Assembly (NCBI GenBank): GCA_963706595.1
Contig: OY970166.1
Span: 1,152,001-1,216,000 of the forward strand
DNA: 64,000 nucleotides
Source: an uncultured cyanobacterium
GTDB taxonomy: Bacteria > Cyanobacteriota > Cyanobacteriia > Cyanobacteriales > Nostocaceae
Direction of reading: 5' to 3'
Position numbers and translations under genes: made by a program. The number at the start of each line of letters is the position of its first letter. The first letter of the stretch is position 1. The notes beneath the pieces are model-generated. The model was not told the DNA's origin and made no database searches. It saw only the letters and a program-made list of their open reading frames with translations. Below are positions 55,779 through 64,000 of the stretch, piece by piece.

Positions 55779-57025
55779 TGGCATGGCAAGCTTAAAATAG
55801 TGCATTAGAATGGAGGAAAAAAAAGGAGAAATTGATGGGGAGAGGTCGTAGAGATAAAGTCATATTAGATACAGAGAAAAGAAAAAGATTAGAAGCGATC
55901 GCTCGCAACGGACAGGCCCCAGCCAAAAAAATATTGCACGCACAGGTGTTGTTAATGTGCGATGAGGGAGAGGGTGCAAGGAAAAAATGGACAGATGAAG
56001 AAATAAGTATAGGGTTAAGGGTTCATCGCAATACGGTGGCAAGAATCAGGAAGAGGTTCCTCGAACAGGGAGAAGAACCTGCCTTAAATCGTCATCAGAG
56101 GTTAAAACCACCAAATGTCAGCAAGATAGATGGTCAGACTGAAGCCCAAATCATTGCATTATGTTGTTCTGAACCTCCCACGGGGCAAGCACACTGGAGT
56201 CTCAGATTACTGACGCAAGAAATTCAAAACCGAAAAATTATCATAGAAATTTCTAGGGAGACGATTAGAAAGACATTAAAAAAAACAAATTACGCCCCTG
56301 GAAAACAGAAAGATTTTGTATTCCCGAACGGGATATAGCACGTTTTGTCTCTCAAATGGAAGTAGTTTTAGACCTCTACAGCCAAGAACATAGTGATTTG
56401 GAACCTTTAATCTGTATGGATGAAGCTTCTAGACAATTAACAGGGCATCTTTATGAGCCAAAACCAATGGAACCGGGTGAAGATGCAAAAGAAGATTATC
56501 ACTATACTCGCGAAGGAGTCCAAGCTTTGTTCATGTTTTTTGACCCGATCAGAGGTTGGCGACGTGTCAGCAATCGCGCTCATCGGACTCGTGTTGATTG
56601 GGCCGAAGAAGTCCGTCAACTATTAGATGAAGACTATCCCCAAGCCACCAAGGTCAAATTGCTATGTGACAACCTCAACACTCATAGCATTACATCACTT
56701 TACGAAGCTTTTCCCGCACCAGAAGCTCACCGCTTGGCTAGGAGACTGGAGATTTATTACACTCCTCGCAATGGAAGCTGGCTCAACGTTGCCGAAATTG
56801 AATTAAGCGTTTTAAGCCAACAGTGCCTAGACCGACGAATTCCTAGTATTTGTCAACTATCTACAGAATTGACCGCTTGGCAAAACGAACGTAACCGCAC
56901 CGCAGGTAAAGTTATTTGGCGTTTTACTACTGATGATGCTCGTATCAAACTTAAACATCTTTACCCAGTGTTTGAAACTCACAAAATCGTTGATTCTAAT
57001 GCAACATTTTAAGCTTGTCACGCCA
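55779..57025 (+). mobile_element. IS630-family element, copy 1 (1247 bp between GTAG junctions)
   Basis: About 20-bp TIRs, HTH ORF plus DDE ORF. Confidence 0.95.
55832..57012 (+). CDS. IS630 transposase; ORFs 55832-56338 and 56356-57012 joined by a -1 shift at the A8 run 56278-56285
   Basis: HWSLRLL, then KNKLRPW after the shift; catalytic CMDEA / CDNL / WLNVAEIE. Confidence 0.93.
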
Positions 57026-57029
57026 GTAG

Positions 57030-58276
57030 TGGCGTGACAAGCTTAAAATAGTGCATTAGAATGGAGGAAAAAAAAGGAGAAATTGATGGGGAGAGGTCGT
57101 AGAGATAAAGTCATATTAGATACAGAGAAAAGAAAAAGATTAGAAGCGATCGCTCGCAACGGACAGGCCCCAGCCAAAAAAATATTGCACGCACAGGTGT
57201 TGTTAATGTGCGATGAGGGAGAGGGTGCAAGGAAAAAATGGACAGATGAAGAAATAAGTATAGGGTTAAGGGTTCATCGCAATACGGTGGCAAGAATCAG
57301 GAAGAGGTTCCTCGAACAGGGAGAAGAACCTGCCTTAAATCGTCATCAGAGGTTAAAACCACCAAATGTCAGCAAGATAGATGGTCAGACTGAAGCCCAA
57401 ATCATTGCATTATGTTGTTCTGAACCTCCCACGGGGCAAGCACACTGGAGTCTCAGATTACTGACGCAAGAAATTCAAAACCGAAAAATTATCATAGAAA
57501 TTTCTAGGGAGACGATTAGAAAGACATTAAAAAAAACAAATTACGCCCCTGGAAAACAGAAAGATTTTGTATTCCCGAACGGGATATAGCACGTTTTGTC
57601 TCTCAAATGGAAGTAGTTTTAGACCTCTACAGCCAAGAACATAGTGATTTGGAACCTTTAATCTGTATGGATGAAGCTTCTAGACAATTAACAGGGCATC
57701 TTTATGAGCCAAAACCAATGGAACCGGGTGAAGATGCAAAAGAAGATTATCACTATACTCGCGAAGGAGTCCAAGCTTTGTTCATGTTTTTTGACCCAAT
57801 CAGAGGTTGGCGACGTGTCAGCAATCGCGCTCATCGGACTCGTGTTGATTGGGCCGAAGAAGTCCGTCAACTATTAGATGAAGACTATCCCCAAGCCACC
57901 AAGGTCAAATTGCTATGTGACAACCTCAACACTCATAGCATTACATCACTTTACGAAGCTTTTCCCGCACCAGAAGCTCACCGCTTGGCTAGGAGACTGG
58001 AGATTTATTACACTCCTCGCAATGGAAGCTGGCTCAACGTTGCCGAAATTGAATTAAGCATTTTAAGCCAACAGTGCCTAGACCGACGAATTCCTAGTAT
58101 TTGTCAACTATCTAGAGAATTGACCGCTTGGCAAAACGAACGTAACCGCACCGCAGGTAAAGTTATTTGGCGTTTTACTACTGATGATGCTCGTATAAAA
58201 CTTAAACATCTTTACCCAGTGTTTGAAACTCACAAAATCGTTAATTCTAATGCAACATTTTAAGCTTGCCACGCCA
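57030..58276 (+). mobile_element. IS630-family element, copy 2
   Basis: 1251-bp period with copy 1; a few SNPs. Confidence 0.95.
57083..58263 (+). CDS. IS630 transposase (ORFs 57083-57589 and 57607-58263)
   Basis: As copy 1, with V>I, T>R and D>N differences near the C-terminus. Confidence 0.93.
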
Positions 58277-58280
58277 GTAG

Positions 58281-58490
58281 TAGCGTGGCAAGCTTAAAAT
58301 GGGGCATTAGGAAAAAGCAGACAACATTGATTTATCTCGATTTTCTCAAAAATCTATTGCAACATTTTAGCCTTGTCACGCCAGTAGTAGCGTGGCAAGC
58401 TTAAAATAGTGCATTAGGAAAAAGCAGAAAACATTGATTTATCTCAATTTTCTCAAAAATCTATTGCAACATTTTAGCCTTGCCACGCCA
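58281..58490 (+). mobile_element. MITEs 2 and 3 (58281-58383, 58388-58490)
   Basis: 103-bp units separated by GTAG. Confidence 0.9.
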
Positions 58491-58494
58491 GTAG

Positions 58495-59741
58495 TGGCAT
58501 GGCAAGCTTAAAATAGTGCATTAGAATGGAGGAAAAAAAAGGAGAAATTGATGGGGAGAGGTCGTAGAGATAAAGTCATATTAGATACAGAGAAAAGAAA
58601 AAGATTAGAAGCGATCGCTCGCAACGGACAGGCCCCAGCCAAAAAAATATTGCACGCACAGGTGTTGTTAATGTGCGATGAGGGAGAGGGTGCAAGGAAA
58701 AAATGGACAGATGAAGAAATAAGTATAGGGTTAAGGGTTCATCGCAATACGGTGGCAAGAATCAGGAAGAGGTTCCTCGAACAGGGAGAAGAACCTGCCT
58801 TAAATCGTCATCAGAGGTTAAAACCACCAAATGTCAGCAAGATAGATGGTCAGACTGAAGCCCAAATCATTGCATTATGTTGTTCTGAACCTCCCACGGG
58901 GCAAGCACACTGGAGTCTCAGATTACTGACGCAAGAAATTCAAAACCGAAAAATTATCATAGAAATTTCTAGGGAGACGATTAGAAAGACATTAAAAAAA
59001 ACAAATTACGCCCCTGGAAAACAGAAAGATTTTGTATTCCCGAACGGGATATAGCACGTTTTGTCTCTCAAATGGAAGTAGTTTTAGACCTCTACAGCCA
59101 AGAACATAGTGATTTGGAACCTTTAATCTGTATGGATGAAGCTTCTAGACAATTAACAGGGCATCTTTATGAGCCAAAACCAATGGAACCGGGTGAAGAT
59201 GCAAAAGAAGATTATCACTATACTCGCGAAGGAGTCCAAGCTTTGTTCATGTTTTTTGACCCAATCAGAGGTTGGCGACGTGTCAGCAATCGCGCTCATC
59301 GGACTCGTGTTGATTGGGCCGAAGAAGTCCGTCAACTATTAGATGAAGACTATCCCCAAGCCACCAAGGTCAAATTGCTATGTGACAACCTCAACACTCA
59401 TAGCATTACATCACTTTACGAAGCTTTTCCCGCACCAGAAGCTCACCGCTTGGCTAGGAGACTGGAGATTTATTACACTCCTCGCAATGGAAGCTGGCTC
59501 AACGTTGCCGAAATTGAATTAAGCGTTTTAAGCCAACAGTGCCTAGACCGACGAATTCCTAGTATTTGTCAACTATCTACAGAATTGACCGCTTGGCAAA
59601 ACGAACGTAACCGCACCGCAGGTAAAGTTATTTGGCGTTTTACTACTGATGATGCTCGTATCAAACTTAAACATCTTTACCCAGTGTTTGAAACTCACAA
59701 AATCGTTGATTCTAATGCAACATTTTAAGCTTGTCACGCCA
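58495..59741 (+). mobile_element. IS630-family element, copy 3
   Basis: Same length and ends; followed by CTAC. Confidence 0.95.
58548..59728 (+). CDS. IS630 transposase (ORFs 58548-59054 and 59072-59728)
   Basis: Protein identical to copy 1. Confidence 0.93.
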
Positions 59742-59806
59742 CTACGTGTTTGTTCAATAATGAAAAAATCGATTGTAACGGCTAAAGGAAAGCTAGATAA
59801 ATAAAC

Positions 59807-59837
59807 TTTTGACTTTTGACTTTTGACTTTTGACTTC
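59807..59837. repeat. Heptamer STRR (TTTTGAC)n
   Basis: Read directly from the sequence. Confidence 0.85.
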
Positions 59838-59848
59838 CCCGAAGGGGT

Positions 59849-60145
59849 TGGCATCCGGCGTTTTTGCTACTGGGTAGGACTTTGGAAGAATGTGCTGCTA
59901 AATATCGTCAGTTTTGTAAGAAATATCGACCGAAGCCAAAGTCTGAAAAAAGGAATCATTGGGGTAGTCGTTTTTTACCTTCTTTGAAGAATAAGGGTAA
60001 GAAGAAGTCACCGGGACAGATGAGTTTACCTTGGGATAAGCAACGAGTCACTGAAGATACTGAGGTGCATGAGGTAGCAGAAAAATTTATTCAGGCTAAC
60101 TGTTATAACCCCGCAGGTCCAGGTATCGGAATTCTGAAATGTTGA
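59849..60145 (+). pseudogene. 5'-truncated gene, probably the C-terminus of a Y1/REP-associated tyrosine transposase
   Basis: Frame WHPAFLLLGRTLEECAAKYRQFCKKYRPKPK begins abruptly after a repeat, with no convincing start. Family from recall only; no HUH motif remains. Confidence 0.5.
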
Positions 60146-60211
60146 TTCTACCGTGCTTTTGGGGCTTGTAATAAATCTTTATAAATGTCTAAAAGCCTTA
60201 GATGTTACAGT

Positions 60212-61252
60212 TTACAAGTCTCGATGCGAGAGAAGAGACACCCCCCACCCACAACCCAACACCCCACCCACAACCCAAACCGGGAGGTGTCCCTTATGGG
60301 AGGAAGTGTCAAAAGTTACATCAGTGTAGTCAATCCAGCTACTCTTCACTCTCCATCCTACGCGATCGCCTAATTTTTCCCAGGCTTCTTGGTAATACTT
60401 GCCGTCAGCTTTACCGCCAACGCTCAAGTAAATTTCCTTCTGGACGCTGAAGCCAAAGTGTCCATTACTGTATTTTACCCACAAGCGGTCAATTGTGCGT
60501 AAATCAGTGCAAGGAAAATTTAAGAATTCGTCTGTACTGAAATATTTGCCTTCTTTCTTACCTACTGCTTTAATCATCACCAGATAGGTTTCTTGGTCGG
60601 CTTCTTTCCAGTTTTTTGCTGCTAGTAAGTCGCGCAGTCTGGTGTAATCTATGCCTTTTTCAGAGTCCAGGTTATCTGTAGCAGTTGGTGGCTGAATAAC
60701 AGGATGCGAGTTAAGAATCTCTCTAGCCTGAACTGCTGAGGTGTCTGGCTGAACGCCGAGATGTGAGTTTAGAAGGTCTAAAGCATTTTTATTAGGTTGA
60801 GACGGCGTTGTGAGAGACGAATGCTGAATTATTGCTTGTGATGCTGGCTTTATTCCAGTAATACCCCAAATCAACTGTCCCATCGGTTCAGGATACTCTA
60901 AACGGAAATCAACCCACGTGAAATTCCGGAGAAATAGAGGCAATTTTGGCTCTGTTAGAGCATCCGGCAAAAGTACCGGAATAACTGGACATTTCCTATT
61001 CACAAATTCTCGTAGGAACGCATTGATTTCTTGATTTTGCCAAGGGCCAATTCCTGATCCCCCTACAAAAACGGCTGCTGCTGCAATCTGTTCTATCTGT
61101 TCCTCTAAAGAATCTTGCGAAGAAAGACCAGGGCGTAAATCCAAAATATCCAACCAGGGTACAATTCCGCGTTGCTTTAGTTGTTCAGCAACTTGGATAA
61201 CCGCAGGTCTATCTTTACTATTGTGACAAAGAAAAACATCAAACTTTTCCAC
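60212..61252 (-). CDS. TIR domain-GUN4 domain protein
   Basis: N-terminal TIR (FDVFLCHNSKDR, PWLD, GPWQNQEI). C-terminal GUN4 (DYTRLRDLL, WKEADQET, FPCTDLRTIDRLW, FGFSVQK, GHLP). GAGGAG precedes the GTG start. Confidence 0.92.
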   Translation of the reverse strand: MEKFDVFLCHNSKDRPAVIQVAEQLKQRGIVPWLDILDLRPGLSSQDSLEEQIEQIAAAAVFVGGSGIGPWQNQEINAFLREFVNRKCPVIPVLLPDALTEPKLPLFLRNFTWVDFRLEYPEPMGQLIWGITGIKPASQAIIQHSSLTTPSQPNKNALDLLNSHLGVQPDTSAVQAREILNSHPVIQPPTATDNLDSEKGIDYTRLRDLLAAKNWKEADQETYLVMIKAVGKKEGKYFSTDEFLNFPCTDLRTIDRLWVKYSNGHFGFSVQKEIYLSVGGKADGKYYQEAWEKLGDRVGWRVKSSWIDYTDVTFDTSSHKGHLPVWVVGGVLGCGWGVSLLSHRDL

Positions 61253-61577
61253 TGGTTACTCCTCAACGCCAGTAATTTTGCCAACGCCATTCCAAAAAAT
61301 GGAACCAATGCCAAAAGGCAGACTGACAGATACAGGTTTTAAGACAATGCGATCCCAAAACATATTATTTATAGTCAGTAAATTTAATTAATTTAGTGTT
61401 TATTATAGTATTTAATGGAAATTATTAGGCGTACTGTTTTAATAAAGTAAAGAACCTCACCCCCAACCCCTCTCCTTATCAAGGAGAGGGGAGAATTTGA
61501 CGCTGGTTTTGTCAACCAAAAATATTGCGCTGCTTCGTTTTTTCAGTTGTCTTGAGAACTGTTCACTGTTCACTGAT

Positions 61578-61871: not shown

Positions 61872-64000
61872 GTCGGGTAGGGCGGGGGCATTGCTACCCC
61901 TTTCCCCCCTAAGAACCGGACAAGCAAGTTTCCAAGCATCCGGCTCAAGCAAAGTCACTCCTGTTGGTAATGTACCTTTTGATGGCAATATTGATGTAAC
62001 CAAACTAGGTTTTTAGTTTCGCTTTTTCCACCATGACACCGAGGAATTATATGGTGTAGGTGTAGCGGTTCACCATTAAACAGTGACTCTCCACAGATAG
62101 GACATTTATAGTCTTGTTTTTTGGCTACATTTTGTTGGATGCGGCTGAGTTTTTCGGCAGTTGATTTATCCCTGATTCGTTGTCTTTTTTCCCAGTATTC
62201 CCTTAATTTTGGGTCGTCTGGGGAAGATTTATGTTGAACCAAAGGGTGTCTTTTAATGTTAAACCACCTAAACTTCAGCATATAAGCCCCAGAAGGTTTA
62301 TCTCCAAATACCCATTTGTCGTTAGGTCTATGGAAGTTTAACCTGCCCCAATATTTTTGTTTTTTCCATGCCTTTGATTTTTGAGGATGGGTGCGATTGA
62401 CAAATCTAACTTGTCTACGGAATAAATGGTCATCTAGTTTAGAGAAAGCTTTTGATGACACTACAGTTTTTAGATAATTAGCTTTGCCTCTAATTATGGG
62501 GTTGATGGCGGCAATTAATAATCCAACGTGTTTTCCCTTGTGTTCTAGGAAGACATTTTTGATATCATTTCGGGTTTGTTGCAAGAATTGCTTGCTGGGC
62601 TTGATGAGTAATTTGTATCCGGTTTTTGTATTGCTGACAGGGTAATGTCGGATATTGAAACCCAGAAAATCAAAGCCTTGTGTAAGATGAACTATTTTGG
62701 TTTTTTCCGGTGAGAGTTCTAAACCTCTAGTTGTTAACCAGTTGTTGATTTCATCTTGGGCTTTTTGTGCATCTGTAAGGGTTTGACAAAGAATCACAAA
62801 GTCGTCGGCGTATCTTACCAGTGTTCTGTTACTTTTGATTATTCCTCGGTTATCGTATTTGATTCCCAAGGCATCTTCCATGCCATGTAAGGCAATGTTA
62901 GCTAGTAAAGGGCTGATAATACCGCCTTGCGGTGTTCCAATTTCTTGGTCGTGGAAGACATTATTGTCTATGTATCCCGCCTTTAACCACTGCCAGATTA
63001 ATTTTCTACCTGGGAAATTGCCGATGGTAGTCATTAATTGGTTGTGGTTGATATTGTCAAAACACCCTTTGATATCCGCATCTACTGCCCATTTTTTTGT
63101 GCCATTTGGTCGGGTTGATAGATATATTTTCCCGATAGCATCATGGGGGCTTCTGCCAGAACGGAAACCGTAACTTATTCCTTCAAATTGTGCTTCCCAA
63201 CATGGTTCTAAGGCATTTTTGACGATTGCCTGTAAGCATCTATCCCGAATTGTGGGTATTCCTAGTGGGCGTTTTTTGCCATTGCTTTTGGGTATGTAGA
63301 TTCTTCTGACGGGTAATACTTGCCAGTCTTGGTTTTTGGCGAGGTCGTCCACCAATTTCCCCCTTTGTTGTGGGGTTTTGACTAGTATTTTGTCCACTCC
63401 TGCGGTTTTGTTGCCTTTGTTTTGTTGTGTGGCTTTCCTGATGGATTGCTGCACGTTTGAGTAACTTTTTAGCATCAGCCTTTGGAGATTACGGACTTTT
63501 CGCCAGTTACCTTCACGAGTTGCTTTAAATATGCGTCGTCTGAGATTCCTAACTCTCCGATTGACTTGATACCAGTTGATACTGTGCCAGTCGGAAGTCC
63601 TGTTGGTTACGTTTGCAGTATTTTGCATCTAACTTTTCCCAAATCAGTTCGGTTTCTTAACTTGGTCAATTCTGCTGACTTCACCTGCCAAAGTCTGCAC
63701 CCTTTCGGGTTGGGTATTGCCCTATTCGTCCAGTTATGAACCAATTAGTTTTGTTTCCTGTTCCCTTGCGGGTGACGACATTCGCTTGTTTGGCATCCTC
63801 TCCCCTCTGCGGTTTTCGGCTTTCCTTGCGGTTGGCTTACTCAAGTTTTCGACCTGGGCTTGAGACCTCATAGGGGTTATCCCGTTCCACACTTTTGAGA
63901 TGCGATATCTTTAGGTTTGTGCTATACTCCGGGAGATTTTTTGGTAGCCTAGGTAATTGATCACGGGAATTACCTCTTTGACTATCTCATCATCGGCGAT
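61872..64000 (-). mobile_element. Group II intron; 5' end lies outside the window
   Basis: Domain V GAGCCGGATGCTTGGAAACTTGCTTGTCCGGTTC at 61946-61913; domain VI ends ...CCTACCCGAC at 61872; intact IEP upstream. Confidence 0.93.
61955..63628 (-). CDS. ltrA: Group II intron reverse transcriptase/maturase with HNH endonuclease
   Basis: TAGVD, RPLGIPT, SYGFR, GTPQGG.ISPLLAN, RYADD, FDFLGF, then CPIC...HLHH...NLVWLHQYCH. Confidence 0.96.
   Translation of the reverse strand: MQNTANVTNRTSDWHSINWYQVNRRVRNLRRRIFKATREGNWRKVRNLQRLMLKSYSNVQQSIRKATQQNKGNKTAGVDKILVKTPQQRGKLVDDLAKNQDWQVLPVRRIYIPKSNGKKRPLGIPTIRDRCLQAIVKNALEPCWEAQFEGISYGFRSGRSPHDAIGKIYLSTRPNGTKKWAVDADIKGCFDNINHNQLMTTIGNFPGRKLIWQWLKAGYIDNNVFHDQEIGTPQGGIISPLLANIALHGMEDALGIKYDNRGIIKSNRTLVRYADDFVILCQTLTDAQKAQDEINNWLTTRGLELSPEKTKIVHLTQGFDFLGFNIRHYPVSNTKTGYKLLIKPSKQFLQQTRNDIKNVFLEHKGKHVGLLIAAINPIIRGKANYLKTVVSSKAFSKLDDHLFRRQVRFVNRTHPQKSKAWKKQKYWGRLNFHRPNDKWVFGDKPSGAYMLKFRWFNIKRHPLVQHKSSPDDPKLREYWEKRQRIRDKSTAEKLSRIQQNVAKKQDYKCPICGESLFNGEPLHLHHIIPRCHGGKSETKNLVWLHQYCHQKVHYQQE

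Follow-up and report, generated by a model that had tools for sequence, protein, structure and literature searches.

A hypervariable insert and a three-frame tail, facing a RAYT-like nuclease, at the end of cyanobacterial effector-GUN4 genes

Bacteria have few known means of diversifying a chosen sequence. At simple-sequence-repeat contingency loci, a change in length shifts the reading frame. The DGRs of cyanobacteria and the clade-5 antigen-sensor DGRs, as presented in passages of PMC7517822 and PMC10907252, make the C-terminal tip hypervariable in kinase, caspase, TIR and STAND proteins from multicellular bacteria, the targets being dispersed paralogues. For REPtrons, passages of PMC3333891 report that the TnpA_REP of E. 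coli requires C|T, propose that C|T cleavage and strand transfer generate sequence variability, and suggest extension of a 3'-OH with trimming as the origin of BIME variability. In marine picocyanobacteria the procA genes, which encode prochlorosin precursors, face tnpA_REP, and the authors of the preprint on these pairs (Laurenceau et al., bioRxiv 10.1101/2020.03.09.984088) found the evidence strong neither for nor against causality. GUN4 fusions to kinase, caspase and TIR domains are also in print and are read as tetrapyrrole sensors in passages of PMC7159879 and PMC8195603, while a passage of PMC10156173 describes LxNxLR as needed for bilin binding and mentions paralogues without it. No account of the GUN4 module described below was found in the literature searched, in which subscription journals are sparsely covered.

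This module, which consists of an effector-GUN4 gene, a variable insert and a three-frame tail, is common in cyanobacteria; it is DGR-like in outcome and has its architecture, enzyme and motif in common with the procA-tnpA_REP pairs. Like the sensor DGRs it varies a C-terminal tip, but it has no RT, avd or template in cis, its fold is GUN4 and not CLec, and its changes are free in length and not A-specific. Unlike contingency loci, it replaces sequence and does not merely expand it, and its tail prevents on/off switching. Its RAYT has the Y1 HUH fold in common with the REPtrons and E. coli TnpA_REP (passages of PMC3333891 and PMC6006769; structure 4ER8), whereas flanking REP arrays are absent, a single conserved element lies on the 3' side only, and the variable product is protein-coding. 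The likeness to procA-tnpA_REP, the nearest case in print, extends to a RAYT placed tail-to-tail, a spacing and intergenic DNA that are conserved, numerous fragments of the RAYT C-terminus, a constant 5' part and an indel-rich 3' part, to which our comparison adds a RAYT homologous over its full length and the same motif, the latter not being in the text of the preprint. It differs in that the target is an effector-GUN4 protein and no Nif11 peptide, the coding tail is constant and three-framed, and the G/T skew is strong. Finally, the module has the GUN4 core through GHLP in common with canonical GUN4 and its paralogues (passages of PMC10156173 and PMC7159879) but carries a variable insert in place of LxNxLR, and those passages are silent on variability and on RAYT.

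The features of the locus are collected in Table 1; the window, here and below, is the whole 64,000-nt stretch of DNA analysed.

Table 1. Features of the TIR-GUN4 locus in window coordinates
Feature	Position	Strand	Basis
TIR-GUN4 gene, 346 aa	60212..61252	-	ORF; Pfam TIR_2 and GUN4
5' anchor (GHLP codons)	60282..60292	-	position frequencies over 141 inserts
Variable insert (42 nt of G and T) containing a 19-nt tandem duplication	60239..60280	-	
Conserved three-frame tail: C/T-rich start, stops 7 nt apart	60198..60238	-	
Possible 5-bp hairpin inside the tail	60231-60219	-	
RAYT-linked motif, 3' end altered in the window copy	60116..60128	-	
C-terminal remnant of RAYT-like Y1 HUH nuclease, tail-to-tail with TIR-GUN4	59849..60145	+	
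Remnant (35 codons, internally deleted) of small partner gene	61256..61363	-	

The window gene joins a TIR_2 domain (aa 6-127) to a GUN4 domain (aa 197-326) in Pfam, which supports the coupling of a variable loop to a TIR-type effector proposed in the earlier note. Its W71-x3-E75 is what we take to be a match to the TIR catalytic motif, and by this single feature the protein may be a candidate TIR anti-phage effector. As had been described, the minus strand from 60280 to 60239 is 42 nt of only G and T; counting its neighbours the run is 44 nt, the third longest of the six runs of at least 28 nt in the 5.57-Mb genome, in which the two longer ones are simple repeats. The 19-nt duplication is present too (the exact repeat is 17 nt, against 8.9 in shuffles), the removal of one 19-mer leaves 23 nt, the length class that yields LFSRIETCKL, the TAA codons end at 60212, 60205 and 60198, and the three tail translations are those given before. 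Just upstream lies what is left of a small partner gene, which matched no Pfam family and is full-length before TIR-GUN4 in L002, L037, L044, L055, L080 and others; short forms of it also occur at further loci, and the window's genome has a second site of this kind. The window copy is probably a frozen product whose diversification is over, because the RAYT remnant, which shares 77% identity with an intact copy over residues 157-256 of the latter, has lost the HUH and the catalytic Tyr, the genome holds RAYT remnants only and none intact, the motif is altered, and the partner gene is internally deleted, signs that the earlier note passes over.

For the comparison with homologues, four sets of loci were assembled: relatives, a RAYT-anchored set, tail-anchored metagenome contigs and tail-anchored genomes. 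The GUN4 core aligns with structures 1Z3X and 1Y6I as far as GHLP, and the position frequencies over 141 inserts place the start of the variable region at the third base of the GHLP Pro codon. Ten loci of the window's genome have a GUN4 domain, and in the true orthologue among them LxNxLR follows directly after GHLP; since this motif is the one needed for bilin binding, the insert replaces the ligand loop. The window gene was therefore rejected as a canonical GUN4 orthologue, its LxNxLR being displaced by the insert. The single-sequence predicted fold of the GUN4 domain reached a pLDDT of 40.8, so that the loop position of the insert rests on sequence. Across genomes, effector-GUN4 genes carry in the place of the bilin-binding loop a hypervariable, G/T-skewed insert, and the 50 genes scanned for N-terminal partners divide as follows: caspase 11, kinase 10, AAA_35 9, NACHT 6, TIR 5, CHAT 3, EAD1 1 and no recognised domain 5. 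At L010, L024 and L029 GUN4 domains stand in tandem, and every one of them has an insert to itself, followed by a tail that is either full or truncated.

Counting only sites with a parsable GHLP anchor, we obtained 198 unique inserts, or 193 after dropping five with a duplicated tail. They range from 15 to 161 nt, so that the loop varies in length as well as in sequence, as the earlier note had supposed, and constant flanks, a tract of variable length and the use of all three frames are borne out as well (53, 72 and 68 of the 193 inserts by frame; p=0.21). Their composition is 16.9% A, 10.8% C, 40.3% G and 32.0% T (G+T 72%), and only seven of the 193 are free of A. The skew is equal at the three codon positions (135 inserts) and is thus not set by amino-acid choice. 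A stop in the used frame is present in 11 inserts, against 102 and 109 for the other two frames. Direct repeats are in excess in 17 of 141 inserts; in addition, the 5' anchor is copied within 11 of the 198 inserts, against 0.2 expected from shuffles, and the tail within five.

The tail deserves caution when a single gene is considered: an end open in all frames and closed by three stops occurs at 127 of the 2558 long ORF ends in the window's genome (5%), a frequency by chance that makes the layout weak evidence in one gene, and the case rests on the homologues. There the three-frame, three-stop layout is kept at 110 of 115 homologous loci, the third codon positions of the tail are conserved at 92-98% in each frame class, and the stops of the unused frames are retained (84/86, 64/72 and 71/72). 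Counts from a pattern scan of 120 homologues, in which at least four rows were wrongly assigned, are set aside here. The statement of the earlier note that all three tails occur among GUN4 fusions was confirmed in these homologues, and a tail usable in any frame is supported even within the window's genome, where all three frames are in use: SLLSHRDL in the window, FSRVETCKL in one paralogue and the ..RLVxCNI type in others. Five GUN4 loci of this genome share the tail DNA at strong scores; another copy, the sixth, is degenerate. The tail, conserved as DNA, closes the protein with a short helix-like peptide, whatever frame the insert leaves. Of 201 genomes from the phylum, 36 contain its pattern, against one match for the reversed control, and a GUN4 gene lies upstream of the tail site at 69/74 sites in one count and, in another, at 72/76 sites with room. 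Viral contigs gave no tail match and no RAYT relative. The hairpin within the tail has no covariation support, no GTAG was seen at its foot by inspection, and no consensus fold was obtained for the 3' element.

The nuclease facing these genes, overlooked in the earlier note together with its motif, belongs in its intact form to the RAYT / TnpA_REP family by its Y1 fold, HUH and catalytic Tyr. Intact relatives of the window remnant match Pfam Y1_Tnp, score 72.5 bits against NCBIfam REP_Tyr_transpos (below its cut-off of 80) and have 4ER8, E. coli TnpA_REP, as best fold match (model pLDDT 63), with no match of the sequence to the PDB. An alignment of 23 RAYTs shows no variation at H60, H62 and Y122, and these proteins end in a GQMxLPW tail that resembles the clamp-binding consensus quoted in a passage of PMC6006769; judged solely against the published table, the motifs NHVH, WE and YIHANP, together with the length, agree best with subclass 2.1. 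In the RAYT-anchored set, the best 80 of 354 matches, of which 75 loci have room, a GUN4 gene lies opposite the RAYT in 70/75 and the tail in 71/75, and all 50 scanned partners of the clade, chosen from 71 GUN4 ORFs, are GUN4 fusions. The motif, with the consensus [CG][AG]ATACCTGGCAC, lies at +103 to +105 from the hairpin start at 92 of 182 sites with room and outside the RAYT ORF at 18 of 75 loci. What these loci show is a RAYT subfamily that faces effector-GUN4 genes, linked with a conserved DNA motif some 110 nt downstream of the insert. No third partner or polymerase in cis was found at the 80 RAYT loci scanned, and no conserved 5' end or flank of the RAYT at 78 loci. An IS200/IS605 insertion sequence was rejected because only one side is conserved, the RAYT nearly always faces GUN4, and the IS200 model scores 25 bits against a cut-off of 55; a REPtron was likewise rejected, given the absence of a conserved 5' flank (78 loci) and the six significant copies of the 3' element in the window's genome, all of them at GUN4 genes or remnants.

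The facing RAYT-like HUH nuclease probably does the rewriting of the tract. In close pairs of loci, mostly from one clade, flanks identical over 230/231 and 252/253 nt (99.6%) enclose wholly unrelated inserts, with an intact RAYT at one partner, while three pairs with no RAYT seen alongside keep theirs (83/83, 60/60 and 51/58) though the flanks have diverged to 82-96% identity. Premature stops occur at 8 of 46 loci with an intact RAYT versus 2 of 111 without (p=0.0009), which is what fresh unselected variants would give, but is confounded by the differing search sets, most intact loci having been drawn from the RAYT-anchored search; at intact loci of the tail-anchored sets the counts are 0/6 and 1/3, on few loci. 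G+T is 0.78 at intact-RAYT loci and 0.72 at the others (p=0.16, not significant). One pair has the first 44 nt of the insert in common and diverges toward the tail, and over 32 close pairs no clear trend in the polarity of divergence was found. The distribution of the 227 junctions fits cleavage at C|T but is ragged: 114 have the full start of the tail and 47 start at an internal C|T step, and among the latter the base two places upstream matches in only 23.

We lean towards a model in which RAYT directs the nicking, rewriting and resealing of a sensor loop, the end being trimmed and then re-extended, in a poorly templated way, by a host enzyme. RAYT would recognise the 3' element in single-stranded DNA, at a replication fork or during convergent transcription, nick where the C/T tract begins and remain attached on the side of the tail; trimming of the free 3' end would be followed by its re-extension by a host polymerase in a slippage-prone and poorly templated manner, after which RAYT would reseal the rewritten strand. 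Selection would keep the variants with an open frame, and loss of RAYT would freeze a variant, whose tip could still be spread by recombination. The choice of strand and the nicking step itself are both inferred.

A different reading, which we judge unlikely, takes RAYT and motif for a one-ended mobile passenger that settles behind genes or spreads them, the tolerant loop drifting by slippage, G-run instability and recombination and the tail being a selected response to frameshifts. It agrees with the scarcity of the nuclease, since beside 74 tail sites RAYT is intact at four, broken at two, a remnant at 14 and absent at 52, with two contig edges, and with the direct repeats in some inserts and the existence of tandem GUN4-tail copies. 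Recombination does move tips: L137 and L232 are identical over a tract of about 226 nt that includes the insert, with flanks elsewhere 90% identical, which suggests a recent tip transfer, and one of the three insert-keeping pairs sits in this tract. However, a drifting loop should not be kept by the RAYT-less pairs while their flanks diverge, nor give unrelated inserts within nearly identical flanks, and slippage writes no new non-repetitive sequence; a passenger is also hard to reconcile with a RAYT that lacks a conserved 5' end and has almost no neighbour other than GUN4.

It is rather improbable that the insert is written in trans by an RT, whether that of a DGR or another error-prone or template-free one, with RAYT only integrating the product or uninvolved. 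RTs of two kinds, DGR and group II intron, do occur in the window's genome, the inserts are A-poor, and template-independent RT-like polymerases are described in passages of PMC9508834 (a search of this paper for an A/C-rich product of Abi polymerases found no mention). Against this, a DGR-type RT is present in only 4 of 10 intact-RAYT genomes by search with one query protein, one genome without it being a single contig, and an RT-like ORF lies near just one of the 80 RAYT loci, DGR RT and avd in cis being absent from the other 79. Moreover, no template for the inserts was found in the window's genome by blastn and nhmmer, plasmids being perhaps outside the searched sequence. The search for a template and a DGR RT that had been advised thus came out in part: a DGR exists elsewhere (G000:C1:4623926-4626947, L219; RT and small avd-like ORF), with a different target, the FGE/CLec of an adjoining SEFIR/TIR-FGE gene, whereas no template bearing the flanks of the insert was seen. 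Beside the L219 DGR itself, blastn gave no template repeat, and several remote look-alike regions. The adenine mutagenesis suggested in the earlier note is not supported, given the composition of the inserts, in which C is scarcer than A and few are A-free, their free lengths and the lack of a template, and the caution expressed there that a DGR may not be responsible was well placed. Since the inserts span a wide range of lengths and all frames and are unrelated within near-identical flanks, they do not have the adenine-specific, near-constant-length substitution of a DGR, and with no cognate RT or avd and no template, DGR membership was rejected.

An origin of the inserts as fragments of host or phage DNA, captured in the manner of spacers, is very improbable: some have an ordinary composition and the window insert matches 22/23 nt elsewhere in the genome, but this match, in an NRPS gene, is of low complexity and judged to be chance, four complex inserts had a source in their own genomes in 0/4 cases (best other match 22 nt, E=0.006), and the composition of the pool, at 40% G and 11% C, does not look like that of genomic DNA. 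An artefact of sequencing or assembly, which the G/T tract and its duplication might have raised, is scarcely credible, because the same anatomy recurs in 193 distinct inserts from many independent assemblies, several inserts being identical between records of different collections, and because stops are purged from the used frame. In the sequencing runs compared, at most 8% of words matched, and the matches were contigs of relatives.

If the rewriting by RAYT holds, the insert is likely a variable binding surface that would trigger TIR, caspase, kinase or STAND effectors, by analogy with the DGR-varied CLec sensors on the same effector types (passages of PMC10907252 and PMC7517822), and the fused GUN4 domains would be variable sensors and not pigment sensors. 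The module makes a small and testable system, in which a single nuclease (about 250 aa) and a variable loop are joined by an element of some 125 nt, and its three-frame tail is a natural answer to frameshifts in libraries of variable length. More tentatively, and with some doubt on our part, it might be a second programmed protein-diversifying machine beside DGRs, in which a domesticated HUH nuclease guided by a short motif would nick a gene at a set position and install largely untemplated G/T-rich DNA of any length, comparable to the junctional diversity of antibodies, with the three-frame tail keeping the product intact.

In a cyanobacterial family with small genomes, 30 of 301 genomes also have homologues that the profile of the GUN4-facing RAYTs detects; these are 45-48% identical over the full length and face Nif11/prochlorosin-type precursors. 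At all 16 assessable loci of this family, picked by RAYT alone, the motif is non-coding and lies 159-271 nt beyond the aligned end; conversely, among 66 motif sites a RAYT end lies within 400 nt in 35 and a Nif11-type leader upstream in 32. One nuclease subfamily with its motif therefore stands behind the hypervariable 3' ends of two unrelated gene families, and since the motif is common to the procA-facing nucleases, the origin of prochlorosin diversity becomes directly testable. If the model is true, the same subfamily would have moved onto unrelated targets, GUN4 sensors and lanthipeptide precursors, and would explain the diversity of prochlorosins. However, the variable regions of the Nif11-type precursors show no G/T skew (28 loci), so that the skew is not general to the RAYT subfamily, which counts against a single mechanism. 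In a tree with outgroups, the branches of the latter are too long and the sisterhood of GUN4- and procA-facing RAYTs is not formally supported; further RAYT subgroups exist, some labelled non-cyanobacterial.

At L328, a RAYT of the small-genome family and the motif face a gene end with no Nif11 precursor, presumably a PGPLP-type C-terminal stretch, which may represent a third type of target. The loci L317, L319, L320, L324 and L333 carry a precursor-like family with a different constant 5' anchor and a variable end before the motif. In the window's genome, a decayed module (G000:C1:5133480-5134780) consists of a truncated TIR-GUN4 gene with a degenerate tail, its GHLP codons being followed by some 400 nt rich in G, A and T, and includes the longest RAYT remnant of this genome. 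Within the window, a group II intron RT-maturase-HNH gene (61955-63628), of which the genome has an identical second copy, lies about 700 nt upstream of TIR-GUN4, and three near-identical IS630-type elements (HTH_32 and DDE_3) stand in tandem at 55832-59728, just past the RAYT remnant. Where this remnant breaks off, at 59800-59850, there are a small palindrome and heptamer repeats, and the junctions at L003, L004 and L008 resemble this site.
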